From an uncultured Gammaproteobacteria bacterium (GTDB taxonomy: Bacteria; Patescibacteriota; Microgenomatia; Levybacterales; UBA12049), in assembly GCA_964540055.1 (NCBI GenBank), contig CAZILC010000003.1, forward strand, positions 21,599 through 85,598: a stretch of 64,000 bases of DNA, written 5' to 3'. Within the stretch, counting starts at the first letter, position 1; every line of letters starts with the position of its first letter. The position numbers were made by a program, and so were the translations under genes. Of the stretch, positions 5,482 to 44,760 are shown piece by piece. The notes under the pieces were generated by a model, which worked only from the letters and a program-made list of their open reading frames with translations, did not search any database and was not told the origin of the DNA.

Positions 5482-8031
5482 TTAATCCTTCATAAGGCAA
5501 GTGGCGGAGGCAATCCCATCTGAAGAATGGGAGAAGCGCATGAGGATGACTCCTTGGGTGTCGCGGGATAATTTAGGTATAGATGAGATGGCGAGTTTGA
5601 CAATCTGGCCTTTTTTGGATGTGATAATTATTTCTTCACTGTCCGGTGGAATTATTTGTGCTGTAACGACCTGACCGGTTCTGTCGGTTACTTTTGCAAC
5701 TTTAACACCTTGTCCGCCTCTATTTTGCAATGGGAACTGACTAACCGGGGTTTTCTTGCCCAGACCATTTTCCATAATGACAAAGAGCTCAGCGCTGTCA
5801 CCTTTGGCAATGACATCCATACCGATCACCTGATCTTTACTGTCAATCTTGATTCCCCGCACACCCATAGTCGCGCGTCCCAATGGTCTGACATGATCTT
5901 CATCAAATTTGATTGCTTTTCCATCTTTTGTGATAATAAGAACATTGCTCTTGCCATCGGTAAGATTGCTCCAGGCAAGTTCATCGCCTGGATCGAGTTT
6001 GATCGCGATCATGCCGTTTCGTCTGATGTTTTCAAAGTCTGCAAGACTAGTTTTTTTAACAGTACCGTTTCTTGTAGTCAGAAAGACATAGCCTGCTTTG
6101 ACAGTTTTTCCATACACAACAAAAGACATAACTTTTTCGCCGGCTTCGATGTTGAGAAGATTGACGATAGCATTACCTTTACTTGTTCTTGAACTTTCTG
6201 CAATTTCATACGCTCTAAGAGCATAAGCTTTTCCTTTGTTGGTGAAGAAAAGGATATTGTCATGGGTCTGTGCTGAGCGGATGTGGGAAATACCATCTTC
6301 ATCTTTGACATTCATACCAGTTATTCCTTTGCCGCCTCTGTGCTGTGTATGGAAGGTGTTGAGCGATTGGCGTTTGATATATCCAGTCGTAGTAAGCGTA
6401 ATAACAGTCGGTTCATTGGGGATCAAATCTTCTTCTGAGAACTCCCCTACCTTGCCTTTAAAGACTTTGGTACGTCTGGGATCTGCATATTTTTCCCGGA
6501 GTTTGCCCAATTCACTTTTAATTACACTCAAAATTTTCTCTCCGTGTGCAAGCAGATCTTCAAGATACGCGATCGTTTCTCTCACCATCTGCAATTCATC
6601 TTCGATTTTCTGTCTTTCAAGTGCTGCGAGACGGCGAAGTTGCATATCTAAAATTGCCGTTGACTGGATTTCTGAAAGTTTGAATTTGCTCATCAAATTG
6701 GTTTTTGCTTCTTCCTGGGTTTTTGAGGCACGAATTGTCTGGATGACGGCATCGATATTATCAACTGCGATTTTGAGCCCTTCCAGGATGTGCAGTCTTG
6801 CTTTTGCCTGGCGAAGCTCAAATTCTGACCGACGTTTGATAACGGTGTATCGGTGTTTGATGTATTCTTCCAGAATAAGTTTCAGATTCAACGTTTGGGG
6901 TGTTCCATCAACGAGTGCAACCATATTTACCGGAAATGTTGTTTGTAGGGATGTTTGTTTGAACAAATTATTTAATACTTTCTTTGGAGCTGCATCACGC
7001 TTCAATTCAACATAGATGCGAAGTCCGCGTCTGTCTGATTCATCACGAAGATCTGAAATACCTTCAAGCTTTTTCTCTTTTGCAAGATCTGCGATTTTTG
7101 CAATAAGAAGCGCTTTGTTCACCTGATATGGGAGTTCGGTGATTGTAATCGCTGATTTTCCGTTGCCGATTTCTTCAATTTCTGCTTTCCCACGAATGAC
7201 AATCTTGCCGCGTCCTGAGACATAGGCACTTTTAATCTCAGTAATGTCATAAATTGAGCCTGCTGTGGGGAAATCAGGTCCCTTGATAAATTCAAGCAGC
7301 TCATCAATCGTCACATCACTTGCCAGGGGAACTTTGGGTTCGGCAAGAGAAACAACTGCTTCTGCATTCGTAACAACTGTTGGTGCTTCATCGCTTTTTG
7401 TGGTTTTGGCTGCCTCGGATGGATTAATGACGGTTGTTTTATCAATCATATAATTGATCGCGTCAATCAGTTCACCGAGATTGTGTGGTGGAATTTTAGT
7501 TGCCATACCAACAGCAATACCTTCTGATCCCATGAGAAGCAAATTTGGAAGTTTGGCCGGCAAATACACGGGCTCTTCTTTGGAAGCATCAAAATTGGGC
7601 ATGAAGTCAACTGTTTCTTTTTCTATATCAACGAGAAGTTCCGCGGTAATTGCTGCCATTCTTGCTTCGGTATAACGCATAGCAGCAGGAGGATCACCAT
7701 CGACTGAACCAAAATTTCCCTGACCATCAATCAGTGGATACCGCATCGAAAAGTCCTGTGCAAGACGTACCATTGCATCATAAACAGGCACATCTCCATG
7801 AGGATGGTATTTACCCAAAACTTCACCAACTACCGTTGCGCTTTTTTTATATTTTGCGCTGTGGACAAGGCCTATTTCATGCATAGCAAAAAGGATACGG
7901 CGGTGGACTGGTTTGAGACCGTCCTTTATATCAGGAAGCGCGCGGGAGACAATGACAGACATCGCATAGTTCAAATACGATTTCTTCATTTCTTCAGAAA
8001 TATTTGTGGGTTGTAATTTGCCGATATTCAT
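5482..8031 (-). CDS. gyrA: DNA gyrase subunit A.
   Basis: [31 protein letters not shown], the catalytic-Tyr region [11 protein letters not shown]-terminal beta-pinwheel repeats, 849 aa. Confidence 0.97.
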
Positions 8032-12031: not shown

Positions 12032-12979
12032 ATGACAGAGCTAGCAGAAGTTCCCCAAGAGGCAGCAAATCCACTAGGAAAACCTGATGCAAAGCATCGT
12101 AGAGATGAAAGAATCCCTGCAGGTGAAACATCAATGCGAAAATTTATAGCAAATACTGTTGAAGAGAGTAAAGGTATTCATGAAGCTTTTAAAAAATCAA
12201 AAAAAGAAAATAGAGCGACGCGTTGGCAAAGGATTTTGCATGCTGTGAATATTCCTGCAAGAATTTGGGGAGCCCGATCTGACCTTGCAGGACAAGCTGA
12301 ACAAGGGTCTACTACTCAAGTTCAAAATGCAGAACCTGAACAATCATCCACTACCAGTGTTGATGCTGCAGAACAAAATGTTGAAAATGCGCATAGAAGA
12401 TCTAAGTCAGAGCGATTTAGAAACGCTGCACGAAGAGTAGCTAAATATTTGGTTAGAGATAAAATAGAACAATTACCAGATGGGTATGTTGCCGAAAGTT
12501 TGAATGATGTGGCGGCTATGCGTAAAACAGATGGATATGAATCTGTATATGATGCCGTGCAAAAAGTTTCTAAAGTTGCACTTCCGGTCAGCGCCAATGC
12601 TGAAACACCTGACGGAGCTCTGGGAAAAGAATTTGCTAATGGATTCATGGGGTATTTAAATGTGCCTGGTGATGAAGGTGATGACGGACTCCAATTGGCA
12701 TTTGGAAGAACTGGAGGCAGACATAGCAGTGATAGCTCAGTTGAAATTGTGCAGTTAGACCCTAAGACAGGTGAACCAATTGGTAAACAAAAACTTATGG
12801 TTCTGCCTGATAAAAGCTTGACAGTATTTCCATTTACCGTAAACGGTAAGGAAATCTCGTTATCGGCAAAAATAGACAGGGGTCAACTTGAATTTGCGAC
12901 AAAGGGTGATAAAAAATTACATATTGGAGAGACTGCCCCCAATCTTGTTGAAAATACTAGTGCTGTTCCTGTAGGCTGA
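12032..12979 (+). CDS. Hypothetical soluble protein, Asp/Glu/Arg-rich, with composition atypical for this genome.
   Basis: ORF track only; no recognisable motifs. The 3' end overlaps the next gene convergently by about 23 bp. Confidence 0.4.
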   Translation: MTELAEVPQEAANPLGKPDAKHRRDERIPAGETSMRKFIANTVEESKGIHEAFKKSKKENRATRWQRILHAVNIPARIWGARSDLAGQAEQGSTTQVQNAEPEQSSTTSVDAAEQNVENAHRRSKSERFRNAARRVAKYLVRDKIEQLPDGYVAESLNDVAAMRKTDGYESVYDAVQKVSKVALPVSANAETPDGALGKEFANGFMGYLNVPGDEGDDGLQLAFGRTGGRHSSDSSVEIVQLDPKTGEPIGKQKLMVLPDKSLTVFPFTVNGKEISLSAKIDRGQLEFATKGDKKLHIGETAPNLVENTSAVPVG

Positions 12980-13778
12980 GTGTTAGCCATCTGAAATCAT
13001 GACTAGGATGTCTCATCTCTAAAAAGCCTCTCACATTAGTAGCAGCCAATTCCCACGCCCATCTGCCAGGATCGTCTTCCCCCATTTCTCGATTCGGAAA
13101 AGCAGACGTATAGCGATTTCTCAGACGTTCAATTGCATCCTCATCCCCGGTTTTTTGAGAAAGTACGAGCTTATAGTCATCTGAAATAGCTATTGAATCA
13201 TCAGTTTCCAATGCTTCTTGTGCTGTAGTAAATGCAGTGGTTAGCAAATCGATATGAGGCTTAGCGTGGGGACTCAAAAAGAAATCCTGAATTTCTTCAG
13301 CTTTTTTCATTTGAGGCCTTCTGGGATCTTTCGGGTCGGTACGTACAGAATCTCTATATCTACTTATCGAATCGATGACTGTTGTATGTACTACGTCATG
13401 CCAGAGGACACCTAATCGTCCTTCTTTCATTAGATGTTCGTCATCATGGATAGGTTTTTCTGGTGTATCAACAGCACGTTTCACCTTATACAATCTATGT
13501 TCTCTGTTTGCAGCGGCTCCGACTCGTATCAGTTGTCGATCAGACAGAGGTGATCTAAGCAGTGCCGGCCAGCTTATAGGAGGTTTCTGAAGCAGTGCAG
13601 CTGCAGTATAGATAGCGATTCCTCGCGTCTCCTCAGGCCAGCGCTTATTGCCATCAATAAATCCTTTCACCCACGTATCTTTAATGAGTGGATCACGATC
13701 TGGTGTTAATGTAAATTCTGTAAATGGAAGTCGTCCAGGTTTTTCATTCATGCAACGAATTATACAGGATAGATGCAA
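12957..13778 (-). CDS. Hypothetical protein. The likely start is MNEKPG at about 13751.
   Basis: ORF track only; Arg/Asp-rich; no motifs recognised. Confidence 0.4.
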   Translation of the reverse strand: MHLSCIIRCMNEKPGRLPFTEFTLTPDRDPLIKDTWVKGFIDGNKRWPEETRGIAIYTAAALLQKPPISWPALLRSPLSDRQLIRVGAAANREHRLYKVKRAVDTPEKPIHDDEHLMKEGRLGVLWHDVVHTTVIDSISRYRDSVRTDPKDPRRPQMKKAEEIQDFFLSPHAKPHIDLLTTAFTTAQEALETDDSIAISDDYKLVLSQKTGDEDAIERLRNRYTSAFPNREMGEDDPGRWAWELAATNVRGFLEMRHPSHDFRWLTLSLQEQH

Positions 13779-13852
13779 AATGTAGCCTCTATAGTCTTTT
13801 TTGTTTTTCGCGACAAATGTCTTATTTCAGAGTATACTTGTAGTCGGTTCTT

Positions 13853-14710
13853 ATGCATGCAAAAAAAATTACTGCAACAATTAAGAGCAAAGCGAAGCAA
13901 TTTAGTAGAAATGCACTAGTTGCGCAAGCGATCCGTTTGGGCTATTTTAGCCGTGGTGTTTTTTATAGTCTGATCGGAATATTTGCGTTTAGCCTTGCAC
14001 TTGGTATTGGAAAAGGTGCTATAAGTCAACAAGATATTTTTTTATCCATTAGTCATATTCCCTACGGTTTCTGGGTTCTTTTTATATTCCTAATCGGAAT
14101 GGCTGGTTATTCATTATGGGGTTTTATTCGGGCGACAATGGATTATCTTTTCCCCCACCATACGCATATACCATTCGTTAAGCGAATTGGCTATATTTTC
14201 AGCGGTATTTTTTATGCATCACTGCTTTTTCCGATTCTTGCAATACTTTTTAATAAACCCGAAAATTCTGCGCATACTGATTCCTTAAAAAACATTTCCG
14301 CAATGTTATTGCATATACCTTTTGGGCAAGTGTTTCTTTTTGCAATTGGAATTACCAGCTTTTTTTCAGGATGTATGCAAATTAGAAGAGCAATGTTGGC
14401 TAAAAAAACTTCGGATGTAAACTATTCTAAAAAGATCAAAAATGACCATATTTTTTTAGTAATCTCACGAATCGGCATTGCAAGTCGTGGGTTAATTTGG
14501 ACAATGGTTGGAATTTTTGCTATTATAGCTGGCGTCTACGCTGATCCATCCCGAATTCAGGATACGAATGAAGTATTTAATACATTGAAATTCTTACCGT
14601 TTGGATCGTTTATTGTGATGATTCTTGCTTGTGGTTTTATTCTTTTTGGACTGTATTCAATGAGTCTTAGTGTATGGGGAAAATTACCTAATAATGAAGA
14701 AGACATCTAA
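13853..14710 (+). CDS. DUF1206-family polytopic membrane protein.
   Basis: Three repeats of R-[LI]-G-x3-RG-x2-[YW]-x2-[IV]G (RLGYFSRGVFYSLIG, RIGYIFSGIFYASLL, RIGIASRGLIWTMVG), each followed by a TM pair. Confidence 0.55.
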   Translation: MHAKKITATIKSKAKQFSRNALVAQAIRLGYFSRGVFYSLIGIFAFSLALGIGKGAISQQDIFLSISHIPYGFWVLFIFLIGMAGYSLWGFIRATMDYLFPHHTHIPFVKRIGYIFSGIFYASLLFPILAILFNKPENSAHTDSLKNISAMLLHIPFGQVFLFAIGITSFFSGCMQIRRAMLAKKTSDVNYSKKIKNDHIFLVISRIGIASRGLIWTMVGIFAIIAGVYADPSRIQDTNEVFNTLKFLPFGSFIVMILACGFILFGLYSMSLSVWGKLPNNEEDI

Positions 14711-15443
14711 TAACAAACAAATTACTGTTGAAAAAGTCAGCACAAAAATACAGGAAGAAATTGTTACAAAACCGGTTCGTAAGAGAAGGACAATCACCCT
14801 TCGAATTTTTCTTGGTATTGCAGTGAGTGCGTTTACTTTGCTTGCGTTTGTAGCTCACACAGTACATTATTTCCCCATTGATCTGATCATAACGAGATCC
14901 ATACAGTCATTTCATCCTGCATGGTTTGATCTCCTTATGAAATTTACCAGTTATATTGGATTTCCTCCGCAAGCAGATATATTTGTTTTAGTTGTCGTTA
15001 TAGGTATGTTTATTTTCGGACTTCGCTTTGAAGCTATCGTTACTTTTTTAAATGCGATTCTCATTACTCTTATTAATATATTTTTAAAGGATCTTATCGG
15101 CAGACCTCGACCAAGCGCTGATCTGGTACAAGTATTTTCTCAAGTGGGACAAACCAGTTTTCCAAGCGGACATGTTATGTTTTATCTTGCTGTGTTTGGC
15201 TATTTTTGGTTTCTCTGTTTTACTATGTTAAAAAAATCACTTCTTAGATTTATTCTTTTATTTATTTTATCTGCGAGTATTATTCTTATAGCTCCATCAC
15301 GAATTTATCTGGGAGCGCATTGGGCAAGTGATGTATTGGGTGCCTATCTATTCAGTAGTATCTGGTTGTTAGTCGTTATTGAATTTCATAATTGGGGCAA
15401 ATCCCGTTTCTTTGTCAAACAACCTGTGGCACCGGAAAAATAA
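14670..15443 (+). CDS. PAP2-family lipid phosphate phosphatase (membrane). The likely start is MKKTSNNK at 14694.
   Basis: PAP2 motifs KDLIGRPRPS (K-x6-RP), SFPSGH (PSGH) and SRIYLGAHWASDVLGAY (SR-x5-H-x3-D). Confidence 0.8.
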   Translation: MYGENYLIMKKTSNNKQITVEKVSTKIQEEIVTKPVRKRRTITLRIFLGIAVSAFTLLAFVAHTVHYFPIDLIITRSIQSFHPAWFDLLMKFTSYIGFPPQADIFVLVVVIGMFIFGLRFEAIVTFLNAILITLINIFLKDLIGRPRPSADLVQVFSQVGQTSFPSGHVMFYLAVFGYFWFLCFTMLKKSLLRFILLFILSASIILIAPSRIYLGAHWASDVLGAYLFSSIWLLVVIEFHNWGKSRFFVKQPVAPEK

Positions 15444-16140
15444 CATGAAAAAACAATTATATAAACAAATCGGGATCTATCTTGGCTATTATTTGTTACT
15501 CGCACTCTTTTCAGTTATTTTGGGATATCTGGTAATCTCTGTGCCATTTATCAAAGTATTTGATAATTATTTGTATGTAAAGATCAATGGTTTGCCGCAT
15601 ACACATCTTACGAATTCAATAATCTGGCCGTTTGATTTGTGGTTTTTTCCCTATCCACAGATTTTCTTTTTCCCAGCATATTTTTATTTTATTTTTGCTG
15701 GATTTCTTCTGTATATGGGTATTTTCAAGCGTTCGTTATTTAAATGGGCTCTTGTATCATTGATTTTGGGATATATGCTTGCCGCATTATTGTTAACACT
15801 TGATTGGCATTTTATCTTTCGTCATCGTCCATTTGAATTTTTGCCAAGCACCGTTGATCGTGTATCAAGAATAGCCTTGATGAAGTTCCCATCATATCCC
15901 TCAGGACATGTGCGGGATACAACATTTGTAAGCACCATTATCGTATCGTTTATACCTGGTGCTAAATGGCTGATGGTTTTATTTGTTATCTTTATTGCTT
16001 TTACAAGAGTGTATCAGGGCGCACATTATCCAACTGATGTTCTGGCAGGAATTCTCTTTGGGTATTTGGTAGGTATTATAACTTTTAAAATAGTAATGGT
16101 TATTCGCAAAATAGTTGCTGAAAGGAAAGAACATACATAA
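15379..16140 (+). CDS. Second PAP2-family lipid phosphate phosphatase. The likely start is MKKQLYK at 15445.
   Basis: RHRPFEF, SYPSGHVRDT and TRVYQGAHYPTDVLAG are the three PAP2 motifs, with multiple TM segments. Confidence 0.8.
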   Translation: MNFIIGANPVSLSNNLWHRKNNMKKQLYKQIGIYLGYYLLLALFSVILGYLVISVPFIKVFDNYLYVKINGLPHTHLTNSIIWPFDLWFFPYPQIFFFPAYFYFIFAGFLLYMGIFKRSLFKWALVSLILGYMLAALLLTLDWHFIFRHRPFEFLPSTVDRVSRIALMKFPSYPSGHVRDTTFVSTIIVSFIPGAKWLMVLFVIFIAFTRVYQGAHYPTDVLAGILFGYLVGIITFKIVMVIRKIVAERKEHT

Positions 16141-16143
16141 ATC

Positions 16144-17130
16144 ATGGCTTCAGCAAAAAAACCAGCTAATGCTATAAAATTTATTTTTAATCCTCATGCG
16201 GGAGAAAAACGTAAAAGTATCGGTGGGGGTAACGGTGTCTCTCTTGATGAAATAAAATCTCTGTTACAACAATATCAGCTGCCCGTAGATTATGCACCTA
16301 CAAAAGGTCCAAAGCATGCAACACAGTTGGCAAAGGAAGGTATCTCTGAAGGGTATGAAACAGTAATCGTCGCTGGTGGCGATGGGACAGTAAATGAGGC
16401 TGCAAATGGTTTGGTAGGAAGCGATATAAATCTTGGAATAATCCCTATGGGGACATTTATGAATATTGCTCATATGCTCTCAATTCCACTGGATATTGAA
16501 AAAGCAATTGCAATTATTAAAATTAAACGAATTCGCAAAATTGATGTAGGGCAAGTGACCAAATTGGAAGGTGAAAAATTAACTGATCCTTATTATTTTA
16601 TCGAATCTTCAGGAATTGGTCTTGATGCACATGTACAGGATTATTTTAAAAAAATAGAAAGGGGCGACTTGCAAAATATATTTCCTCTCATTCATAAGTT
16701 TTTTAAATTCAGATCTGGCTTAACTGAAATTGTAACTGATGCAAAAAAAATTACTTGTAAAGCAAGTATTATTAATGTCGCAAATGGTCCTTACGCGGGA
16801 GCAAATTTTAGAATGTCACCTTCTGCAAAGCTAAATGATCACCGTTTGACTGTTTCAATATATTCAATGACACAATGGGAATTGGTAAAATATTTTTTGA
16901 AAATGAAATTGACGCAAAAATCTGATGGACGAAGATTACATACAATAAAAGCAAAAAATGTTAAAATTCAAACCACAACTGAAGATATGTACGTACATGT
17001 GGATGCGAGTTTGTTTGGTTCACCTCCTGTAAATTACAAAATTATTCCAAACGCCTTAAATGTCATTTGTGGTTTTCCCGCATCTTCTGACCCGGTTTCT
17101 ATTTCATCACGAACGACGTTAGATCCTTAA
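16144..17130 (+). CDS. Diacylglycerol/lipid kinase catalytic-domain protein (DAGK_cat, YegS/DgkB-like).
   Basis: FIFNPHAGEKRK...VIVAGGDGTVNEAANGL...GIIPMGTFMNIAHML are the DAGK_cat ATP-binding and GGDG motifs. Confidence 0.8.
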   Translation: MASAKKPANAIKFIFNPHAGEKRKSIGGGNGVSLDEIKSLLQQYQLPVDYAPTKGPKHATQLAKEGISEGYETVIVAGGDGTVNEAANGLVGSDINLGIIPMGTFMNIAHMLSIPLDIEKAIAIIKIKRIRKIDVGQVTKLEGEKLTDPYYFIESSGIGLDAHVQDYFKKIERGDLQNIFPLIHKFFKFRSGLTEIVTDAKKITCKASIINVANGPYAGANFRMSPSAKLNDHRLTVSIYSMTQWELVKYFLKMKLTQKSDGRRLHTIKAKNVKIQTTTEDMYVHVDASLFGSPPVNYKIIPNALNVICGFPASSDPVSISSRTTLDP

Positions 17131-18044
17131 GGAGTAAGTATCGTTAGAGCGCGAGGCAGGATTTCAATCGTTAATTGTTTGGTTGGAGGGAAAATATTTC
17201 CATCACACTCAAATGCTTTTTTCCTACCAATTACTGAAATGACAATCTTTTTCCCTTTTAAAAACGTATAATGAGGACTTTTATTAATATTTCCGGATAC
17301 AGTGTGTCGTAACAAACTAATCCAGTAGTACCAGTTTTTTGCCTGAATAATGCCGATTGAAAGTCTGCCGTTGGTTGCTGAAGTTTGAGGCACAAGATAA
17401 TATCCACCTTGAATTTTGCCTAAATTCGCGGCAAGAATTGTTTTCGCTCTAACTATAATTGGTTTGTTTTCATCTACTTGTAATTTATATATTGTTGATG
17501 AACGGAGTAAACTTCTCAGTGCTGAATACAAATATGCAAGTACACCAATTCTATTTTTTAATTGTCTATTAGCACCCTTTATCATTTCTGCATCAAACCC
17601 GATTCCTGCTAAAATGGCAAAATAAATTGCATTTGCGCGCCCTATATCTATTTTGAGAGGTTTTCCGTGAAGTGCAATTTTCATGCTTTTTGTAGTATCC
17701 AGAGGAATACGTACATTTTGAGCAAATAAATTTCCTGTTCCAAGAGGCACGATTCCGACAGTTATATTTTTATTTACACATGCGCCAACGACTTCCATAA
17801 TTGTTCCATCACCTCCACAAACAATCAAATGAGTAACCCCCTTTTTTATTGCTTGACTTGCTATATCTGTTGCTGTGTTCTGTATTGTGGTAGTTTGCAA
17901 TTCACCATCCCATCCATTTTCCTTTGCAATTGACTGGATGGTTTTTTTTCTGTCTTTCTCATTACCGGGACCACTTACAGGATTAAGAATGATAAGTGGT
18001 GATCGGGCGTTGTGATTTATTTTATTTATCCCCTTTTTTTGCAT
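17127..18044 (-). CDS. Second DAGK_cat lipid kinase, convergent with the first with a 4-bp overlap.
   Basis: LIILNPVSGPGNEKDRK...LIVCGGDGTIMEVVGAC...GIVPLGTGNLFAQN. Confidence 0.8.
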   Translation of the reverse strand: MQKKGINKINHNARSPLIILNPVSGPGNEKDRKKTIQSIAKENGWDGELQTTTIQNTATDIASQAIKKGVTHLIVCGGDGTIMEVVGACVNKNITVGIVPLGTGNLFAQNVRIPLDTTKSMKIALHGKPLKIDIGRANAIYFAILAGIGFDAEMIKGANRQLKNRIGVLAYLYSALRSLLRSSTIYKLQVDENKPIIVRAKTILAANLGKIQGGYYLVPQTSATNGRLSIGIIQAKNWYYWISLLRHTVSGNINKSPHYTFLKGKKIVISVIGRKKAFECDGNIFPPTKQLTIEILPRALTILTP

Positions 18045-19660: not shown

Positions 19661-20284
19661 CTATTTCCCTCCAAACAGACTGGTAAAGAATGAGATTATA
19701 AGCATAATAAATTGGAGGAACAATTGGAGTAAATTGCCGCCGCCGCCAGTTGTGGGAATTGTGGTAGGAACGGGTTGTTGCGTTGGCTGTGTTGATGTGC
19801 CGGGAGTCTGAGAAATTGTTGGCGTTGGACATCCTGCACCCAGACAGACATTTGTAGGTGCTGGAGTGGCAGGAGTTGGAGTAGCCTCACAGGCAACAGG
19901 TTCACAACCTTTTCCAAGTGTATCCTGATAGCAAACAGCACCGGTTCCGCAATCTGCATTGGTATTACATGACTTGGAACAAATGCCTGAGCCATTAAGT
20001 TGAATATCTGCAGAACAAATGGATGCTTGTAATCCCTGACATTGACCGCCGCCTTGTGTGCAGTATTTGCCAATTCCCTGTTCATTGCCCATATCACCAG
20101 GTGAACCACAGGTTTGTGACTGAGCATGTTGCTGGTAGGTTTGTTTAGTTTGAATTTGAAAAAGTGCCAAATATAAAGCAGCAAGCAAAATACCAAAAAC
20201 GATGAAATATTTTTTGGTGAATTTCGATTGTCCTTTTGATTTGGCAGCCGGTTTGGATGCGGCTTTTTTGAGCTTCTTGGGCAT
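19661..20284 (-). CDS. Secreted or anchored protein with a conserved 9-Cys module and a P/T-rich linker (paralog A).
   Basis: N-terminal Lys-rich region plus TM anchor, then TCGSPGDMGNEQGIGKYCTQGGGQCQGLQASICSADIQLNGSGICSKSCNTNADCGTGAVCYQDTLGKGCEP. This module is near-identical to the one in the next gene. Confidence 0.6.
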   Translation of the reverse strand: MPKKLKKAASKPAAKSKGQSKFTKKYFIVFGILLAALYLALFQIQTKQTYQQHAQSQTCGSPGDMGNEQGIGKYCTQGGGQCQGLQASICSADIQLNGSGICSKSCNTNADCGTGAVCYQDTLGKGCEPVACEATPTPATPAPTNVCLGAGCPTPTISQTPGTSTQPTQQPVPTTIPTTGGGGNLLQLFLQFIMLIISFFTSLFGGK

Positions 20285-20331: not shown

Positions 20332-21441
20332 TTATAGGTTTGGATTATTAATTTCTCGGAGGAATAAATTATAATCAGTTTGATCTACTTTACCATCATC
20401 GTTAAGATCGGAGGCTTGTATTTGTTCCGCGTTGCATGATTTATTTTGTCTTAATAGACTAATACACTGAATAATTTTGTTGTAATCCAATGTGTTTACT
20501 GCGTCATCATTATTTACATCACCTGCAATGAGTGATGCTGGATCGACAATTGTCTGTTGTCCAATGATCACGGGTACACTGTCTAGTGTCGCGGTGATAA
20601 AGCTTGAGGTTTTAATAGTTACCGTATAGTTTCCGGTTACCAAAATATTCCCTAAATCCGCGGTTCCTGTAAAGGCACCCTTGGCAGGATCATAACTAAA
20701 TTCCTTATTTTGTGTGATAAGTGGAAGATTTTGCGTTCCTACAACTGAAATGGTAAAGGTTCGCTTGGTATGCAGTGGAGATTTATTACTTAAGGTACTT
20801 AGCTGGGTGCGATTATCTCCACTATTTCCAATTCCATGCAGGAAAATTTTGAAAATGAGAACCGATGAATTCGGTTTTGCTGTCGGCACAGGAGTTTGCG
20901 TTGGATATACAGTAGGAATAGGCTTGTACGTTGGTGTGGGGGTGGGTTTGCTGGTTGGTTTGGCTGTGGGTTTTGGAGTTGTTGTGGGTTGAAGTTTGAT
21001 AGTCGGTTGTGGTTGTGCTGTGGGTTTTGGAGTCGCAGTTGGCTGCTCTGTTGTACAAACATCAGGTTTACATCCTTTTCCGAGTGCATCTTGATAACAA
21101 GTTGCGCCTGTTCCACAATCCGCGTCTGTATTACACGATTTGGAACAAATACCATGTCCGTTTAGTTGAATATCAGCAGAACAAATCGGCGAACTTGTAC
21201 CGAGACACTGTCCCCCACCCTGCGTGCAATATTTCCCGACTCCCATGGCATTTCCTTGATCACCCGGAACGCCACAAGTTGCGGATTGTGCGTGTTGCAT
21301 AATGCTTTGTCTTTGCTGCGTCTGCAAAACGGTGAACGACAAGGTAACTAAAAGAAAGAGTGAGATCAAAAGCGTCACATATTTTGAGTGCTTTTTAGTT
21401 CTTTTTTTAGATATTGGACGGGATAGAATTTTTCTCGGCAT
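20332..21441 (-). CDS. Paralog B: the same 9-Cys module, a P/T/K-rich linker, a beta-rich middle domain and a C-terminal type I dockerin.
   Basis: TCGVPGDQGNAMGVGKYCTQGGGQCLGTSSPICSADIQLNGHGICSKSCNTDADCGTGATCYQDALGKGCKP. The C-terminal GDVNNDDAVNTLDYNKII and SDLNDDGKVDQTDYNLFL are the two Ca-binding dockerin repeats. Confidence 0.65.
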   Translation of the reverse strand: MPRKILSRPISKKRTKKHSKYVTLLISLFLLVTLSFTVLQTQQRQSIMQHAQSATCGVPGDQGNAMGVGKYCTQGGGQCLGTSSPICSADIQLNGHGICSKSCNTDADCGTGATCYQDALGKGCKPDVCTTEQPTATPKPTAQPQPTIKLQPTTTPKPTAKPTSKPTPTPTYKPIPTVYPTQTPVPTAKPNSSVLIFKIFLHGIGNSGDNRTQLSTLSNKSPLHTKRTFTISVVGTQNLPLITQNKEFSYDPAKGAFTGTADLGNILVTGNYTVTIKTSSFITATLDSVPVIIGQQTIVDPASLIAGDVNNDDAVNTLDYNKIIQCISLLRQNKSCNAEQIQASDLNDDGKVDQTDYNLFLREINNPNL

Positions 21442-24338: not shown

Positions 24339-26078
24339 ATGCCCGGTTTAAATTCCGCTCCATCTGTTATGCAAGATCAGTCCAGTCTTTCTCTTCTGGA
24401 TATGCTTCTTGCAGATCATCTACTCACCGATCAACAATATCAGCAAGTAAAATTAAAAAGCGATGAAGGTGGTCAATCGACAGTCGATGTCCTCAAATCC
24501 ATGCATATCATTCCCGATTCCAAAATCGCGGAAGCACAGGCAAAAATCATTGGTGTTCCCTATATTTCTCTGGGGACAGTTTCATTTTCTCCTCAGGCGT
24601 TGAGTTTTCTCTCCCGATCAGTCGTCGAACGGTTTTCGCTGATTCCCTTCGCCTATGATGATGGCACCAAGACACTTTCAATAGCCATGGCCAATCCAGT
24701 TGATCTTGATGCACTTGCTTTTGTCCGTCAGAAAACCGGCCTCATAATCAAATCATTCGCAGCTGATCCTGCAGAGGTACTCGGAGCAATTGATCAGCAA
24801 TATCAGCAGTCAATTGTTGGTGAAGTTGGTGAAGCTATTAAAGAGACTGAAGAATTTTCTGATAATAAGACAGTTGATAAAGAAAAAATCGCGCAAATTA
24901 TTCATGATGCGCCAATTGCCAAAATCGTATCGACAATTCTTGAATATGCTGTTAATAGTAGATCATCAGATGTGCATATTGAACCGCTCAATGATAAGTT
25001 GCGTGTCCGATACAGAATTGATGGTATTTTGTATGATAAATTGAGTCTTCCCAAAAATGTCCGCGATTCACTAACGTCCCGTATCAAGATTTTGGCTGAA
25101 CTTAAAATTGATGAACATAGGATTCCTCAGGATGGACGGTTTAATTTCAAAATTGATAAGCAGGAAGTTGATATTCGTGTCTCAATTATCCCGACAGTTC
25201 GGGGCGAAAAAATTGCTTTGCGTCTTCTGTACAAATCCGGTGGGATACCATCGCTTACTGATTTGGGAATGGGCGGAACAGCACTCAAGTCACTCGAGAC
25301 GGCAGTTCTTAGACCGCATGGGATCATTCTTGTTTGCGGACCGACCGGATCGGGAAAAACTACAACGCTTTATTCGGTACTTTCCCGTTTGAATACCACG
25401 CGGGTAAATATTTCTTCATTGGAAGATCCGGTCGAATATGAAATGCCCGGAATTAATCAGGTTCAAATTAATGCAGGAGTAGGATTAACGTTTGCATCCG
25501 GATTGCGGGCATTTTTGCGTCAGGATCCAAATATCATCCTTGTTGGTGAAATTCGTGATAAAGAGACAACCGATCTGGCAATTCAGGCCGCTCTTACCGG
25601 CCATTTGGTGTTTTCAACGCTTCATACGTCCCGCGCAGCCGGAGCACTTCCACGTTTGATTGATTTGGGTTCTGAAAGTTTTCTTCTTGCATCAACAGTC
25701 AACGCGATAGTTGGTCAAAGAATAGTGCGTAAAATCTGTCCGCATTGCAAAGAATCATATATACCACCTCCTCAATTAATGGATGAAGTTAAACGAGTTC
25801 TTATTACACTCTTCCCAACATCAGGTGATGGCAAATTTTATCGCGGGAAAGGGTGTCAGGAGTGCGGTGGTCTTGGTTATTTAGGAAGAATGGGGATTTA
25901 TGAAGTGTTGGTATCGTCAGAAAAAATTGCGAGACTTATGGTCGAGGGAAAGGACGAGCAAAAAATTGAAGATCAGGCAATTGCTGAGGGAATGATCACG
26001 ATGAAACAAGATGGCTACTTGAAAGTTTTGAAAGGAGATACTACTATGGAAGAGGTGCTCCGAGTAGCGCAAGAATAG
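24339..26078 (+). CDS. pilB: Type IV pilus assembly ATPase PilB (GspE family).
   Basis: N-terminal GspII_E_N-like domain, Walker A GPTGSGKTTTLYS, the His box STLHTS and the tetracysteine CPHC...CQEC. Confidence 0.92.
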   Translation: MPGLNSAPSVMQDQSSLSLLDMLLADHLLTDQQYQQVKLKSDEGGQSTVDVLKSMHIIPDSKIAEAQAKIIGVPYISLGTVSFSPQALSFLSRSVVERFSLIPFAYDDGTKTLSIAMANPVDLDALAFVRQKTGLIIKSFAADPAEVLGAIDQQYQQSIVGEVGEAIKETEEFSDNKTVDKEKIAQIIHDAPIAKIVSTILEYAVNSRSSDVHIEPLNDKLRVRYRIDGILYDKLSLPKNVRDSLTSRIKILAELKIDEHRIPQDGRFNFKIDKQEVDIRVSIIPTVRGEKIALRLLYKSGGIPSLTDLGMGGTALKSLETAVLRPHGIILVCGPTGSGKTTTLYSVLSRLNTTRVNISSLEDPVEYEMPGINQVQINAGVGLTFASGLRAFLRQDPNIILVGEIRDKETTDLAIQAALTGHLVFSTLHTSRAAGALPRLIDLGSESFLLASTVNAIVGQRIVRKICPHCKESYIPPPQLMDEVKRVLITLFPTSGDGKFYRGKGCQECGGLGYLGRMGIYEVLVSSEKIARLMVEGKDEQKIEDQAIAEGMITMKQDGYLKVLKGDTTMEEVLRVAQE

Positions 26079-26080
26079 TT

Positions 26081-27148
26081 ATGGACATTCAAGAACTGTT
26101 ATCACTGACAATTAAAAATAAAGCATCGGATTTGCATTTGATGGTTGGCTTGCCTCCGACCTTTCGTATTGACGGCGCTCTTCGGTATCTGACAACGTAT
26201 CCTGCTCTTAAGACCGCAGATCTTGAGGCAATGATATTTTCGATTCTTACTCCCGAACAGAAAGAGTTACTGCTTACCAATAAAGAGCTTGATTTTTCAT
26301 TCGGATTCCGTGGAAAAGGTGCGACCGAGAATGGCCGGTTTCGTATTAATGCCTATTTTGAAAAAGGAACTGTTGCAGCGGCTTTGCGTTTTCTTGCACC
26401 GGGGGTTAGAACTGTTGAGGAATTAAGCCTTCCTAATGTCGTTCATGATTTTGCCAAACTCAAACAAGGATTCGTTCTTGTCACCGGTCCAACCGGTCAT
26501 GGCAAATCGAGTACGCTTGCTGCTCTGATTAATGAAATCAATTTAAATAAATCATGTCATATCCTAACTATTGAGGATCCGATTGAGTATGTGTATCCCA
26601 AAGGCAACAGCATTATCTCCCAGCGTGAAATGAGTATTGATACGCATTCATGGTCTATGGCACTTCGTTCTTCCCTTCGTGAAGATCCGGATGTTGTTCT
26701 TATCGGTGAAATGCGTGATCCTGAGACAATGCAGGCAGCAATTACCCTTGCAGAGACCGGCCATCTAGTACTTTCAACATTGCATACTAATTCTGCATCC
26801 CAAAGTATTGATCGTATTGTCGATGCGTTTTCGGCCGATCAACGGTCACAGATCCGCATACAGCTTGCCGCAACGCTTAAGGGTATTATCTCGCAACGTT
26901 TAGTTACCAAAATTGGCGGTGGTCGAATTCCGGCAGTTGAAGTATTACTCGGAACACCTGCTGTTGCAAGTAATATCCGGGATGGAAAATCACATCTGAT
27001 AGACTCGGTTATTCAAACCTCAAAAGACATGGGCATGATAACAATAGATGAATCTTTGGCAAATCTTGTTAAAGAAGGTATTATAACGATCGATGATGCC
27101 AGATCCTATGCTCTACGCATAAATGAACTTGAGAGACTGGTTGGATAA
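26081..27148 (+). CDS. pilT: Twitching-motility retraction ATPase PilT.
   Basis: GPTGHGKSSTLAALIN, TIEDPIEY, LSTLHTNSA, 355 aa; 2 bp downstream of pilB. Confidence 0.92.
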   Translation: MDIQELLSLTIKNKASDLHLMVGLPPTFRIDGALRYLTTYPALKTADLEAMIFSILTPEQKELLLTNKELDFSFGFRGKGATENGRFRINAYFEKGTVAAALRFLAPGVRTVEELSLPNVVHDFAKLKQGFVLVTGPTGHGKSSTLAALINEINLNKSCHILTIEDPIEYVYPKGNSIISQREMSIDTHSWSMALRSSLREDPDVVLIGEMRDPETMQAAITLAETGHLVLSTLHTNSASQSIDRIVDAFSADQRSQIRIQLAATLKGIISQRLVTKIGGGRIPAVEVLLGTPAVASNIRDGKSHLIDSVIQTSKDMGMITIDESLANLVKEGIITIDDARSYALRINELERLVG

Positions 27149-27262
27149 ATATAATTTTCCATTTTTCATATTCCTTTTTCCATTGATTTTTGATTAACAA
27201 TTGCACATTGAACGATTGAAAATACATGGTAAACGGCAAATGGCCAATGGAAAATTACACTT

Positions 27263-28468
27263 ATGAGACTTTATTACCGAGCGGTAACGCAAGATGGAAA
27301 AACGGTTCGTGGCTTAATTGAAGCGAAAGATGTGAGCGAAGCTGCACTCTATCTTCGACAACATCAATTTATTCCTGTTCAAATAATTGCCGAAAACAAA
27401 GCCGGTTTGACAAGATATTTATCGCTCCTCCATCGGACCAAAGCCTCAGATATTGTCTTTTTTACTCGCCAGCTGGCATCAATGATTACCTCAGGACTGA
27501 CGCTTCTGCAAGCGCTAAATGTCTTAAAAAATCAGGTCCAAAATGCAGCTTTGTCTGAAATGATTCAAGGTATTATTACTGATATTGAAGATGGAGCAAT
27601 GCTTTCAAAGGCTCTTGAAAAATATCCATCTGCATTTTCCCCGATCTATGTTGCCCTAGTCAAAACGGCAGAAGCATCAGGTCTTTTGGATAAAGTACTC
27701 ACAAGGCTTGCTGAGAATCTGGAAAAAAAGGAACAGCTAATTCGTACAATTCGAGGGGCGTTATTATATCCGATCATTGTTGTAGTCATGATGGTACTTG
27801 TCATGGTGGTTATGATGATTTATGTCGTGCCGCAATTAACTGTTCTGTATGGTAATTTGAACATGAGTCTCCCCTTACCGACTGTTATTGTCATTGCAAT
27901 GTCAAACTTTTTGACTCATTACTGGTATATCGCAATAACGTTATTTGTAATCATTTCGGTTTATCTTAAAAGCTGGCATAATAAACCATCAGGTAAAAAA
28001 ACAACCGATGCGTATGTTCTCAAGTTGCCGATTTTTGGACAATTGATTCGGGACAGTATGATGGCTGAATTCGCCAGGACGTTATCTCTTTTGATTAGTT
28101 CAGGCTCACTCGTTGTCGAATCTTTGGTAAAAAGCAGTGATGTGGTGGGAAATGTAATTTATAAAGACGCGATTGGTCTGGTCGCCAAACGGGTTGAGAA
28201 AGGCATTTCGATTGGAGATGCAATGGCTGCTTCTCCTCTATTTCCCCCGATGGTTGTTGAAATGGTGAAAATCGGTGAACAAACCGGAAAATTGGATAGT
28301 TCACTTCTTAAAGCTTCTGAATATTATGAACGTGAGGTTGAAGAAAAGGTAAAGACCATGACGACACTGATGGAGCCAATAATTATGGTTCTTCTGGCTT
28401 TAGGTGTGGGATTTTTAATTATTGCCATCATTACACCGATTTATAACCTTATTTCAAATATTAGTTAG
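27263..28468 (+). CDS. pilC: Type IV pilus inner-membrane platform protein PilC (GspF family).
   Basis: Two GspF repeats and 3 TM segments, 401 aa. Confidence 0.9.
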   Translation: MRLYYRAVTQDGKTVRGLIEAKDVSEAALYLRQHQFIPVQIIAENKAGLTRYLSLLHRTKASDIVFFTRQLASMITSGLTLLQALNVLKNQVQNAALSEMIQGIITDIEDGAMLSKALEKYPSAFSPIYVALVKTAEASGLLDKVLTRLAENLEKKEQLIRTIRGALLYPIIVVVMMVLVMVVMMIYVVPQLTVLYGNLNMSLPLPTVIVIAMSNFLTHYWYIAITLFVIISVYLKSWHNKPSGKKTTDAYVLKLPIFGQLIRDSMMAEFARTLSLLISSGSLVVESLVKSSDVVGNVIYKDAIGLVAKRVEKGISIGDAMAASPLFPPMVVEMVKIGEQTGKLDSSLLKASEYYEREVEEKVKTMTTLMEPIIMVLLALGVGFLIIAIITPIYNLISNIS

Positions 28469-34629: not shown

Positions 34630-35544
34630 ATGGAAGAACAAGCAACATCATCCCCTTCCGTAACTCCACCACCTGATACTAGTGCTCAGGAACCTGCTCA
34701 ATCTCATTCGCCTACTCCCCCATCTCAATCAGCTCCCAAACATTCTAAAAATCGTTTTATTTGGATCTTTGTCCTTATTGTATTTTTCTTAGGCTTTCTT
34801 GCAGTTGCAGCCTGGTATTTCCAGAATCAACTTCAGAAAACCGCGTTGGAAAATAAGCCGACAACTGAAGCTCCTGCAGCGATGTCTCCAAAAGAATTGA
34901 TAATCGGTACCGATCCAACATTACCTCCTATGGAATTTCTTCAGAATGGTAAATTTGTCGGATATGATATCGATTTGGCGAACTTGCTGGCCAAACAAAT
35001 GGGCGTAAAAGTCGAATTCAAAAATGTAGTTTTCGACAATATCTTCAGCGCTCTTCAGGATCATCAGATCGACCTTATCGTCTCAGCTGTTACCATAACG
35101 CCAGACAGACAGGCAAAATATGATTTTTCGGAGCAATATCTTAATGCAGGACAAGTAATTATTACAAGAAAAGACAATACAACAATTACCAGCGTTAAAG
35201 ATCTTCAGGGAAAGAAAATTGGTGTCCAAAAAGGAACTACCAATGAAACCCAAGCACTTAAGTATACTTCCTCAACATTAGTTATTCGATATCCAGATTT
35301 TGTCCAGGCAACAAAAGCGCTTGTGAATGGTCAGGTCGATGCCATATTTGATGATTTACCAAGCTCCAAAGGAATCACGCAAGACAATCCAACACTTAAG
35401 ATCGCGAGTGATCCATTTACCGATGAATATTATGGTATTGTTTTTAGAAAAGGCGATCCGGAAGTCAAAGAAGTAAATAAAGCACTTGATGCACTCCGTG
35501 TACGAGGCTATCTCACAGAATTAAAGAATAAATGGCTTGATTAA
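34630..35544 (+). CDS. Membrane-anchored family-3 solute-binding protein (polar amino-acid type), copy 1.
   Basis: P/S/T-rich N-terminus plus a TM anchor, then an SBP_bac_3 fold (GTDPTLPPMEF...GYDIDLANLLAK...LIVSAVTITPDRQ...GVQKGTT). No ABC permease or ATPase genes are adjacent. Confidence 0.8.
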   Translation: MEEQATSSPSVTPPPDTSAQEPAQSHSPTPPSQSAPKHSKNRFIWIFVLIVFFLGFLAVAAWYFQNQLQKTALENKPTTEAPAAMSPKELIIGTDPTLPPMEFLQNGKFVGYDIDLANLLAKQMGVKVEFKNVVFDNIFSALQDHQIDLIVSAVTITPDRQAKYDFSEQYLNAGQVIITRKDNTTITSVKDLQGKKIGVQKGTTNETQALKYTSSTLVIRYPDFVQATKALVNGQVDAIFDDLPSSKGITQDNPTLKIASDPFTDEYYGIVFRKGDPEVKEVNKALDALRVRGYLTELKNKWLD

Positions 35545-35562
35545 AGTCGCTTGTAAAAATGA

Positions 35563-37464: not shown

Positions 37465-37544
37465 TGTTTTTTGTAATAATGACTCTTGTATTGACAAAAA
37501 AATGTGAATAATCGATTATTAAGATAGAGTTATTTTTTTATACT

Positions 37545-38534
37545 ATGGATCAGCAAAATCAATCATCACCACCGCAAAATCCACCTCAAGATTCCAGTAT
37601 GCCGTCAAATCAACCAGCTACGCCTGTTCCTCCTCCTCCATCTCCTACTCCAGGAATGCCAACTGATCCATCTTCATCCTCTCCAACGCCTACCCCTGCT
37701 TCTTCTGTGCCCCCAGCTATACCACCAAAACATTCAGGAAGCAAATTACCTTGGATAATTTTGCTCATTATCTTATTTATCGGTTTTCTCGGTCTTGCGA
37801 CGTGGTACTTTCATTCACAATTACAAAATCTAGTAGGACCAACGCCAACACCCTCGCAATCTGCGGCAAACACACAATCAAAAACACTTGTTATAGGAAC
37901 TGACCCTACTTTTCAGCCAATGGAGTACAAACAAGATGGGAAAGTGGTTGGATATGATATTGATCTGGCTAATTTGATTGCAAAGCAACTTGGAGATAAA
38001 GTTACTTTTAAAAATATCACGTTTGACAATCTCTTTACCGCGCTGCAGCAGCATCAAATTGATATGATTATATCTGCCGTAACAATTACACCAGAAAGGC
38101 AGAAAAAGTATGCTTTCTCCAAAGAATATCTCAATGCAGGACAAGTAATTATTACCCAGCAAGCAAATACTGTCATTAAATCCCCGACTGATCTCAAAGG
38201 TAAAAAAATTGGTGTGCAGCAAGGAACGACTGATGAGTCCGAAGCGCTTAAATATACTGACGCCAATCTTGTGATCAAATATCCGGATTTTGTTCAGGCA
38301 ACAAAGGCCTTGGTTAGCGGAACTGTTGATGCGATCATAACAGATTTACCCAGTGCACAAGGAATTGTTGGTACAAATCCTACACTTAAAATTGCAAGTG
38401 ATCCATTTACCAATGATTATTATGGCATTGTGTTTAGAAAGGGAGATCCTGAGGTTGAACAAGTCAACAAAGCTCTTGATTCACTCAGTGTTAGAGGCTA
38501 CCTGACAGAACTCAAGCATAAATGGTTAGATTAA
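37545..38534 (+). CDS. Family-3 solute-binding protein, copy 2 (paralog of 34630..35544).
   Basis: Roughly 70% aa identity to copy 1 across the SBP fold, with the same anchor architecture. Confidence 0.8.
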   Translation: MDQQNQSSPPQNPPQDSSMPSNQPATPVPPPPSPTPGMPTDPSSSSPTPTPASSVPPAIPPKHSGSKLPWIILLIILFIGFLGLATWYFHSQLQNLVGPTPTPSQSAANTQSKTLVIGTDPTFQPMEYKQDGKVVGYDIDLANLIAKQLGDKVTFKNITFDNLFTALQQHQIDMIISAVTITPERQKKYAFSKEYLNAGQVIITQQANTVIKSPTDLKGKKIGVQQGTTDESEALKYTDANLVIKYPDFVQATKALVSGTVDAIITDLPSAQGIVGTNPTLKIASDPFTNDYYGIVFRKGDPEVEQVNKALDSLSVRGYLTELKHKWLD

Positions 38535-38552
38535 AGCAACATTGAAAAATGA

Positions 38553-41287: not shown

Positions 41288-41330
41288 GATTTGATTTGCA
41301 GGAAGTACCATAAGTAGTAATAATAAAAGT

Positions 41331-41840: not shown

Positions 41841-41858
41841 TTAGTAGTTTGCGAAAAT

Positions 41859-42814: not shown

Positions 42815-42850
42815 GTTGAAATATTTGAATTTAACGGTGATAATAGAAGT

Positions 42851-44757: not shown

Positions 44758-44760
44758 TAT

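Follow-up and report, generated by a model that had tools for sequence, protein, structure and literature searches.

Organization of the gene cluster

The window analyzed in this work is a stretch of 64,000 nucleotides (nt) from contig CAZILC010000003.1 of assembly GCA_964540055.1, and it carries at positions 13,853 to 18,044 a compact cluster of five genes, whose products are predicted to add phosphate to membrane lipids or to remove it. The open reading frames (ORFs) and their Pfam domains, all above the respective cut-offs, bear out the five families named in a preliminary description of this DNA. The cluster begins on the plus strand with a DUF1206 membrane protein (13853..14710; 285 amino acids, aa), which matches PF06724 in three repeat stretches at 112.9 bits (cut-off 26.2). 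It is followed on the same strand by a canonical PAP2 lipid-phosphate phosphatase, here termed PAP2a (14694..15443; 249 aa; PF01569 at 67.5 bits, cut-off 27.2), by an atypical PAP2 protein, PAP2b (15445..16140; 231 aa; 58.7 bits against the same cut-off), and by kinase K1, a predicted soluble lipid kinase of the YegS/DgkB fold (16144..17130; 328 aa; DAGK_cat 98.9 and YegS_C 61.8 bits). A second predicted soluble lipid kinase, K2, lies on the minus strand (17127..18044; 305 aa; DAGK_cat 96.8 and YegS_C 55.6 bits). The starts of PAP2a (14694) and PAP2b (15445) were taken from independent gene calls on the identical public contig.

The plus-strand genes are tightly packed. The 3' end of the DUF1206 gene overlaps the start of PAP2a by 17 nt, and gaps of 1 nt and 3 nt separate PAP2a from PAP2b and PAP2b from K1, respectively. 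K1 and K2 are convergent and have 4 nt in common at their stop codons, which overlap on opposite strands within the palindrome CCTTAAGG (17124-17131), both proteins ending in proline. The start of K2 overlaps the end of mgsA, and K2 thus belongs in this genome to the mgsA transcription unit. A divergent intergenic region of 74 nt 5' of the DUF1206 gene (13779..13852, plus strand) is the sole non-coding gap before the four packed genes and is therefore presumed to be the promoter region. It includes one weak sigma-70-like match (13810-13838; 9/12), and in a promoter and terminator scan of 13.4-19.4 kb matches were no commoner than in shuffled sequence (17 vs. 21.5 for promoter-like ones). The cluster also differs from its surroundings in base composition, with a GC content of about 35% across 14001-18000 compared to 40-42% in both flanks.

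Conservation of the module

Ten distinct loci of the K1 family, the window among them, were compared, with orthology assigned by BLASTP. PAP2b lies directly adjacent to K1, on its upstream side, in nine of the ten, PAP2a is found near K1 in six, DUF1206 in five and K2 in three. A protein of family PF03706 stands near K1 in four loci, never together with DUF1206. The closest relatives of all five window proteins, at 69-83% identity, are encoded on a contig of Candidatus Levyibacteriota. Locus L003, from a metagenome-assembled genome (MAG) of that group, has one-to-one orthologues of all five genes in the order seen in the window (DUF1206-PAP2a-PAP2b-K1, with K2 convergent) between entirely different flanks. 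A more distant contig (L098) holds all five families reordered on one strand, as K2-PAP2b-K1-DUF1206-PAP2a, and K2, the first gene of the cluster there and oriented like the others, is therefore considered a genuine member. The order in L006 and L092 is PAP2b-K1-DUF1206-PAP2a. The PF03706 form of the module reads PF03706-PAP2b-K1 in L008, L013 and L095, and PF03706-PAP2b-K1-PAP2a in L010. The tenth locus, L096, lacks PAP2b, and K1 is followed there by a phosphatase of the His_Phos_1 family. The low GC content of the cluster and the fact that its flanks in L003 and L098 are unrelated suggest that the module is transferred between genomes as a whole.

As a control, metagenome contigs were searched with the K1 alignment, and 79 of the 80 loci listed contained generic kinases of this type (25-32% identity). 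Motif and hidden Markov model searches of the 597 kb surrounding these 79 genes revealed no PAP2, DUF1206 or PF03706 protein, the sole PAP2-like ORF among the listed loci being that of L013, a locus of the K1 family. The frequency of PAP2b beside K1 (9/10 loci, vs. 0/79 controls) thus indicates that association with PAP2 characterizes the K1 family and not DAGK_cat kinases generally. Long stop-to-stop ORFs at some control kinases (L017, L051 and others) were considered as PAP2-kinase fusions and found to comprise kinase domains only. A search of genome contigs with K1 gave the known Levyibacteriota contig as its only match.

The clustering far exceeds what chance would produce. Its invariant core consists of PAP2b and K1, to which PAP2a, K2 and a polytopic partner are frequent additions, and we consider it very probable that the genes of the module form a genuine functional unit. 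The preliminary description had remarked that this was not a standard operon, which agrees with what was found, namely a conserved module described by no paper that we could find. The literature search returned no paper on PAP2 with DAGK_cat, on PAP2 with LPG_synthase_TM, or on lipid salvage by phosphatases and kinases in the Candidate Phyla Radiation (CPR), and it returned DUF1206 in one transporter census only. Within the literature searched, the obligate pairing of K1 with PAP2b, the five-family module, the alternation of DUF1206 with PF03706 and the fusions of K2-type kinases to HAD phosphatases (see below) appear to be undescribed. Every component family is already known, and we place the module with membrane lipid phosphate recycling.

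Some of the loci show further features. In L096 the K1 orthologue (57% identity) and a 163-aa His_Phos_1 phosphatase, 7 nt further on, occupy 6001-7485, and an mgsA homologue lies 4 kb downstream, echoing the adjacency of K2 and mgsA in the window. A 228-aa protein upstream of K1 in the same locus was examined as a divergent PAP2 and gave no match. A K1-family protein (P0096) and a K2-HAD fusion (P0170), both from JGI and each with a longest contig of 9,788 bp, probably lie on one contig, which would represent a fourth linkage of K1 and K2. The contig of L008 and L009 is labeled Candidatus Nitrosocosmicus, an archaeon, by NCBI; its GC content of 33.5% fits this label, but its tRNA-Gly T-arm (GGGTTCGACTCCC) looks bacterial.

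The phosphatases

Both PAP2 proteins have six hydrophobic helices, and hydropathy together with positive-inside counting predicts an inner N terminus and catalytic motifs in outer loops. PAP2a carries the motifs LKDLIGRPRP (K-x6-RP), FPSGH (PSGH) and SRIYLGAHWASD (SR-x5-H-x3-D), which are kept in 6 orthologues; those in L003, L006, L010, L092 and L098 are 35-77% identical to it by BLASTP. In PAP2b, tryptophan replaces the lysine of the first motif, C1 (WHFIFRHRP), and the RP, PSGH and TRVYQGAHYPTD (TR-x5-H-x3-D) elements are kept. The replacement extends throughout the family, as the C1 lysine position is W, T, I or Q in 8/8 PAP2b orthologues, which retain RP, PSGH and [STG]R-x5-H-x3-D. The earlier view of two paralogous PAP2 phosphatases with all three catalytic motifs thus holds for PAP2a, but not for the C1 motif of PAP2b, and the paralogy is one at the level of the superfamily (31% identity over 111 aa).

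The best solved relative of PAP2a is PgpB/YodM of Bacillus subtilis (5jki, E 6e-11), and that of PAP2b is LpxE of Aquifex (6ebu, E 8e-9), both of which we take to be membrane lipid phosphatases with an active site at the outer face. The active sites of PAP2a and PAP2b are likewise predicted to face outward. The equivalog models NF008813 (YbjG-type), NF047884 (SepP) and NF007975 (PgpB) were not reached by either protein, the scores being 21.5-36.7 bits compared to cut-offs of 229-261. PAP2b gives, in addition, sub-threshold matches to the Pfam families PAP2_3 and PAP2_C.

The lipid kinases

K1 and K2 score 124.2 and 132.4 bits, respectively, with the NCBIfam model TIGR00147 (the YegS/Rv2252/BmrU lipid kinase family), above its curated cut-off of 118.65. 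Their solved relatives are DgkB, BmrU, YegS and 4wer, and neither protein has a hydrophobic or transmembrane segment by hydropathy. On these sequence grounds both are classed as cytoplasmic lipid kinases of the YegS/DgkB type, in line with the preliminary description, which had proposed two convergent DAGK_cat lipid kinases with GGDG motifs; GGDG is in fact invariant in both families. An identity as NAD kinase or phosphofructokinase, which the same description had put forward as the alternative, was rejected, since PF01513 reaches 22.4 bits in both kinases against a cut-off of 25.5 and TIGR00147 is passed; the match to the NAD kinase model covers only about 50 residues around GGDG. More specific assignments were not obtained from NCBIfam: the DgkB equivalog NF009874 gave 92.9 bits for K1 and 110.4 for K2 (cut-off 385), the YegS equivalogs TIGR03702 and NF009602 gave 72.1 and 91.8 (cut-off 387) and 93.2 and 111.3 (cut-off 284), respectively, and both kinases fall far below the cut-off of the MamU equivalog.

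The two kinases are well separated from one another. K1 has 711 homologues, the best 120 of which are 46-83% identical to it over their full length. Its orthologous group is invariant in GGDG and in an H-x-D-A motif that replaces D-G-E, and has a conserved C-terminal tail, GFP...LDP. The K1 profile aligns at full length to BmrU and DgkB, with D287 of K1 on the aspartate of the BmrU D-G-E motif and its Gly-Glu replaced (D-A-S/R). K2 belongs to an orthologous group of its own (39-72% identity), in which GGDG, PLGTGN and CDG are invariant. In 10 of the approximately 78 listed members of the K2 family, a phosphatase of type HAD-IA (HAD_2) is fused to the C terminus of the kinase. These fusions of about 520 aa (P0154, P0145 and eight others; loci L099-L102) occur on contigs as long as 1.5 Mb, and the closest PAP2 gene in L099 and L102 begins approximately 6.6 kb downstream. 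The association of K1 with PAP2b or His_Phos_1, and of K2 with HAD, makes the combination of lipid kinase and phosphatase a recurring one.

By sequence comparison, the four enzymes belong to separate orthologous groups, one each, which diverged long ago and are conserved independently, such that the phrase "two copies of each enzyme" used earlier is misleading. That the gene pairs arose by recent duplication is ruled out by the low identities (31% for the PAP2 proteins as given above, 27% over 260 aa for the kinases) and by the separate orthologues of each.

The polytopic partner

The DUF1206 protein is predicted by hydropathy and the positive-inside rule to form six transmembrane helices in three hairpin repeats, with basic ends that are both cytoplasmic. 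At the inner interface, each repeat starts with R-[IL]-G-x-x-x-[RS]-G. The AF2 model, which is of fair quality (pLDDT 76, pTM 0.75), is all-helical and has no significant match among the solved structures of the PDB, and the protein has no NCBIfam match. The family is large, comprising 7207 representatives, the best 150 of which are all standalone proteins of 258-309 aa, with no informative fusion among them. It has been listed as putative transporter family TCDB 9.B.140 (PMC3924187). Orthologues occur in the same module at L003, L006, L092 and L098.

The PF03706 proteins in L008, L010 and L095 pass the cut-off of TIGR00374 ("flippase-like domain") and show weak likeness to the flippase of glucosaminyl-phosphatidylglycerol and to MprF. 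A profile of 27 DUF1206 sequences compared by hhalign with the PF03706 partners indicated no homology (probability 0.13%, E 0.44), and it follows that two unrelated polytopic proteins fill the same slot of the module. In one protein (P0088) a PF03706 domain is fused in front of K1, an arrangement compatible with both a translocator and a kinase-docking role. By analogy, DUF1206 is a candidate lipid translocator or a candidate membrane dock for K1.

Proposed function of the module

The module suggests a system, not described before, in which phosphate is added to membrane lipids on one side of the membrane and removed on the other. PAP2a and PAP2b would remove, or possibly transfer, the phosphate of lipid phosphates in the outer leaflet, and K1 and K2 would re-phosphorylate the neutral lipid at the inner leaflet at the expense of ATP. 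Since the enzymes would act on opposite faces, the lipid would have to cross the membrane between the reactions, which fits a flippase-like partner; DUF1206 may thus move the lipid between leaflets, or else dock K1 on the membrane. With a glycerolipid as substrate, the kinases would convert diacylglycerol (DAG), or monoacylglycerol, to phosphatidate (PA), which would re-enter phospholipid synthesis, and the PAP2 proteins would be phosphatases of phosphatidylglycerol phosphate (PGP), PA or lyso-PA. A DAG kinase and a PGP phosphatase would then represent the first and last steps of the recycling of DAG to phosphatidylglycerol (PG), and in a cell of the Levyibacteriota, which belong to the CPR, the outcome could be the remodeling of lipids perhaps acquired from outside.

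We regard the case for such a cycle of phosphate across the cytoplasmic membrane, acting on a glycerolipid, as about evenly balanced. Family memberships, conserved synteny, the alternating partners and fusions, and the lack of transmembrane segments in the kinases come directly from the sequence analysis, whereas we infer that the PAP2 sites face outward, in which direction the cycle runs, what part DUF1206 plays and which lipid is the substrate. On a rough estimate, a glycerolipid has about an even prospect of being the substrate, and a polyprenol and any other lipid have half that prospect each. A glycerolipid is favored because the substrates of characterized kinases with this fold are DAG, PG, ceramide or sphingosine, and because HAD enzymes, such as the one fused to K2 relatives, include PGP and PA phosphatases. 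It is also favored by the substrates of PF03706 proteins, which, characterized or proposed, are PG derivatives, and by the PGP phosphatase activity of PgpB and LpxE (PMC7413402, PMC6581854). There are precedents for both of the suggested roles of the polytopic partner: MprF, GpgSDF and HexSDF pair a cytoplasmic lipid-modifying enzyme with a PF03706 flippase (PMC12713373), and DgkB of Staphylococcus aureus needs the polytopic protein GdpS for its orientation at the membrane (PMC11962490).

Several observations weigh against this interpretation. The scores of the PAP2 proteins and kinases lie far below the cut-off of every equivalog model, and the evidence from PAP2 does not separate a glycerolipid from a polyprenol, since the relatives PgpB and LpxE also dephosphorylate undecaprenyl diphosphate (C55-PP). 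The absence of the C1 lysine means that PAP2b may be other than a simple hydrolase. No cdsA, pgsA, plsC or other pathway partner occurs in the window or in any K1 locus. The size of the DUF1206 family, together with a distant member in L004 that is not beside the module, suggests that its role here may be accessory. The membership of K2 is based on three loci, two of which are closely related, and the K2 gene of the window lies on the minus strand, in the mgsA transcription unit. The K1 loci were picked on contig size, and not at random. Finally, a loop of dephosphorylation and re-phosphorylation would by itself be a futile cycle, and its purpose, be it uptake, leaflet sorting or regulation, is conjecture.

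A bolder extension of the transbilayer cycle would make DUF1206 a new family of lipid translocators, unrelated to the MprF-type domain, that forms with PAP2b and K1 a vectorial shuttle (group translocation for lipids) by which CPR bacteria import lipids from other cells and provide them with new headgroups. We consider this extension unlikely.

Alternative explanations

The preliminary description had suggested that the cluster could serve a host-dependent reduced genome to salvage host lipids and give them new headgroups. In such a scheme the lipids would be dephosphorylated outside, flip across the membrane as neutral lipids and be trapped inside by phosphorylation. This layout matches the uptake of lysophosphatidate and sphingosine 1-phosphate by eukaryotic cells with the assistance of ecto-phosphatases. 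The DUF1206 form of the module is found in loci with DUF5667 (L092) and DUF5670 (L007), both presumably families typical of CPR. The organism is close to a Levyibacteriota MAG, and incomplete lipid synthesis has been reported for CPR bacteria, along with the acquisition of lipids, lysolipids among them, from other cells (PMC7242380). The claim that the window holds no genes for fatty-acid or phospholipid biosynthesis also stands: fab, pls, cds and other such genes were found neither by Pfam among the scanned ORFs of at least 110 aa (most of the non-overlapping ones of the window) nor by scanning all six frames of the entire window for motifs, and motifs of CdsA, CDP-alcohol transferase, PlsC, UppS, UppP and DgkA were absent from both the window and the K1 loci. 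On the other hand, contigs of 0.84 Mb and of 1.57 Mb also carry the K1-PAP2b core with PF03706, and the neighbors of the module on the longer contig (L010; TetR, MFS, glyoxalases) look typical of a free-living bacterium. The enzymes, moreover, are ancient orthologous groups and not a duplication specific to one lineage. Salvage of host lipids would in any case be a special case of the transbilayer cycle rather than a separate mechanism, and as such it is plausible, if doubtful as the explanation of the module.

Recycling of polyprenyl carriers is the main rival to the glycerolipid cycle, and it is live on biochemical grounds. In this scheme PAP2a would convert C55-PP, set free by the polymerization of peptidoglycan or glycans, to undecaprenyl phosphate (C55-P) and PAP2b would convert C55-P to undecaprenol on the outside; the alcohol would cross the membrane with the aid of DUF1206 or PF03706, and K1 (and K2) would be a new, soluble polyprenol kinase that restores C55-P on the inside. 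The scheme gives separate jobs to two different PAP2 proteins and accounts for the pair of outside phosphatase and inside kinase. The best NCBIfam matches of both PAP2 proteins, far below threshold, are undecaprenyl-diphosphatases (YbjG-type PRK11837 and SepP), and PgpB/YodM and LpxE are C55-PP phosphatases as well (PMC7413402, PMC6581854). Users of polyprenyl phosphate are encoded in the window, namely a PMT_2 glycosyltransferase (47.8 kb) and a class A penicillin-binding protein (PBP; 57.5 kb), and the surroundings of the module in L010, L092 and L096 include genes for GT4, PMT_2, Ddl or polysaccharide deacetylase. The archaeal label of the contig of L008 and L009 would, if correct, speak for a lipid shared by bacteria and archaea, although the tRNA of that contig looks bacterial. 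The envelope genes of the window are, however, 30-40 kb distant; none adjoins the cluster, and the earlier proposal of carrier recycling for "adjacent envelope genes" is thus without local support. The known undecaprenol kinase is an unrelated, integral-membrane enzyme of the DgkA type, and we know of no enzyme of the DAGK_cat/YegS fold that phosphorylates polyprenols. There is no obvious part in C55 recycling for the cytoplasmic HAD phosphatase that is fused to relatives of K2, and the characterized and proposed substrates of PF03706 are glycerolipids. On balance, polyprenyl recycling is rather unlikely.

A further possibility is that the lipid phosphate made by K1 is exported by the flippase-like partner or by DUF1206 and that PAP2b uses it outside as the donor of a phosphate or phospho-headgroup to an envelope acceptor, with PAP2a clearing the by-product. 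Such phosphotransfer would give the ATP-consuming cycle a purpose. It could account for a PAP2b family that systematically lacks the C1 lysine and keeps the motifs of the nucleophile histidine, although lysine loss is not a known signature of transferases and LpxT has a canonical C1 motif. The sub-threshold matches of PAP2b are to transferase-type families (PAP2_3 and PAP2_C), but they cover only the shared C2-C3 region. PAP2 transferases of the sphingomyelin-synthase type offer a further model for PAP2b. Phosphorylation from a lipid donor in the periplasm has its precedent in LpxT (PMC2229476), and export of the product is known from pairs of cytoplasmic modifier and PF03706 flippase (PMC12713373). 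Against this, no acceptor or acceptor-related gene is conserved beside the module, and in L096 K1 is paired with the soluble His_Phos_1 phosphatase in the absence of PAP2b. We therefore consider phosphotransfer improbable.

A chance or merely inherited adjacency of five unrelated membrane and lipid genes without joint function, for which one might cite the position of K2 on the other strand in another transcription unit and the close relationship of the window to L003, from which a common order could be inherited, is highly improbable, and the observed synteny already contradicts it: the window, L003 and L098 all keep the five families together between completely different flanks, with a changed order in L098, PAP2b adjoins K1 but none of the control kinases, a PF03706-K1 fusion exists and the plus-strand genes are packed at -17, 1 and 3 nt.

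Relationship to known systems

The proposed transbilayer cycle resembles several known systems in part. The recycling of C55-P in Gram-positive bacteria likewise combines an outside phosphatase, an inside kinase and a carrier lipid that crosses the membrane, but its kinase is of the DgkA family, unrelated to DAGK_cat, and its translocators are DedA and DUF368 rather than DUF1206 and PF03706. The PAP2-DAGK fusions of NF009025/PRK12361 (546 aa) demonstrate that PAP2 and this kinase fold are joined in one polypeptide elsewhere. K2 aligns to their kinase half only (profile positions 238-540, E 1e-42), and with 145.8 bits compared to a cut-off of 505 it is not a member of this uncharacterized family, the domains of which are separate genes in the window. 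To our knowledge, genes of the dgkB/pgpB type are not known as one operon in the Firmicutes. The DgkB/PgpB pathway from DAG to PG in that phylum (PMC11962490) shares with the module a soluble kinase with the DAGK_cat + YegS_C fold at the inner leaflet, the dependence of DgkB on a polytopic partner for its orientation (GdpS-DgkB) and, in PgpB/YodM, the nearest solved relative of PAP2a. It differs in that K1 and K2 fall far short of the DgkB model, K1 has H-x-D-A and not D-G-E, and the partner in the module is DUF1206 or PF03706, not a 5TMR_Lyt-GGDEF protein.

PgpB, BcrC/YbjG and LpxE (PMC7413402, PMC6581854) have the six-helix PAP2 fold, PSGH and SR-x5-H-x3-D motifs and an outer-face site of the kind predicted here. 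The similarity to them is remote, they have no known obligate pairing with a specific kinase family, and the PAP2b family lacks the C1 lysine. With MprF, GpgSDF and HexSDF (PMC12713373) the module has in common a TIGR00374 flippase-like protein, which occurs in four K1-locus operons and once fused to K1, and the principle of modification inside followed by movement across the membrane. In the window, however, the partner is the non-homologous DUF1206, the modifier is a kinase rather than an aminoacyl- or glycosyltransferase, and predicted outward phosphatases are added; flippase activity is unproven even for GpgF. LpxT (PMC2229476), an outer-face PAP2 enzyme that uses a lipid phosphate made with cytoplasmic energy to phosphorylate lipid A from C55-PP, may serve as a model for PAP2b, but there is no specific sequence similarity to it, the organism is probably monoderm and devoid of lipid A, and no acceptor is known here.

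The module bears on the open question of how CPR bacteria (Patescibacteria) acquire and handle membrane lipids when their own synthesis is incomplete; the source of their lipids "remains elusive" (PMC7242380). The module offers clonable candidates in the K1 kinase subfamily and the lysine-less PAP2b subfamily, which are almost always found together, and it places DUF1206, a family of more than 7000 representatives with no assigned function, in a defined biochemical setting as an alternative to MprF-type flippases. Should the transbilayer cycle be true, DUF1206 would gain its first function, the soluble lipid kinases of bacteria would gain a new functional subgroup, and there would be a route, open to testing, by which uncultivated bacteria could salvage lipids or sort them between leaflets. 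Should the module serve ordinary DAG or C55 housekeeping, its value would be limited to better annotation.

Other features of the window

The remainder of the window encodes gyrase, pyrophosphatase, FolD, two-component systems, aminoacyl-tRNA synthetases and dockerin-type secreted proteins, and scans of the window with Rfam and for tRNAs gave no matches. A 971-aa ORF on the minus strand (1633-4548) has no Pfam match, nor have the two ORFs immediately upstream of the module (12032-12979, plus strand; 12957-13778, minus strand), which are not conserved beside the module in L003. Encoded next to each other on the minus strand, at 19661-20284 and 20332-21441, are two paralogous secreted proteins with a high content of Cys, Thr and Pro; both have the N-terminal motif QS.TCG.PGD.GN..G.GKYCTQGGGQC, and the longer one (20332-21441) ends in a dockerin domain. 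A tandem duplication at 34630-40433 comprises, twice in succession, a solute-binding protein of family SBP_bac_3 and a dCache/HAMP histidine kinase. Genes for type IV pili are arranged in two blocks, one with PilB-like and PilT-like ATPases and PilC (24339-28468), and the other with a prepilin peptidase, several pilins and PilM (40448-46352), as is typical of CPR episymbionts.

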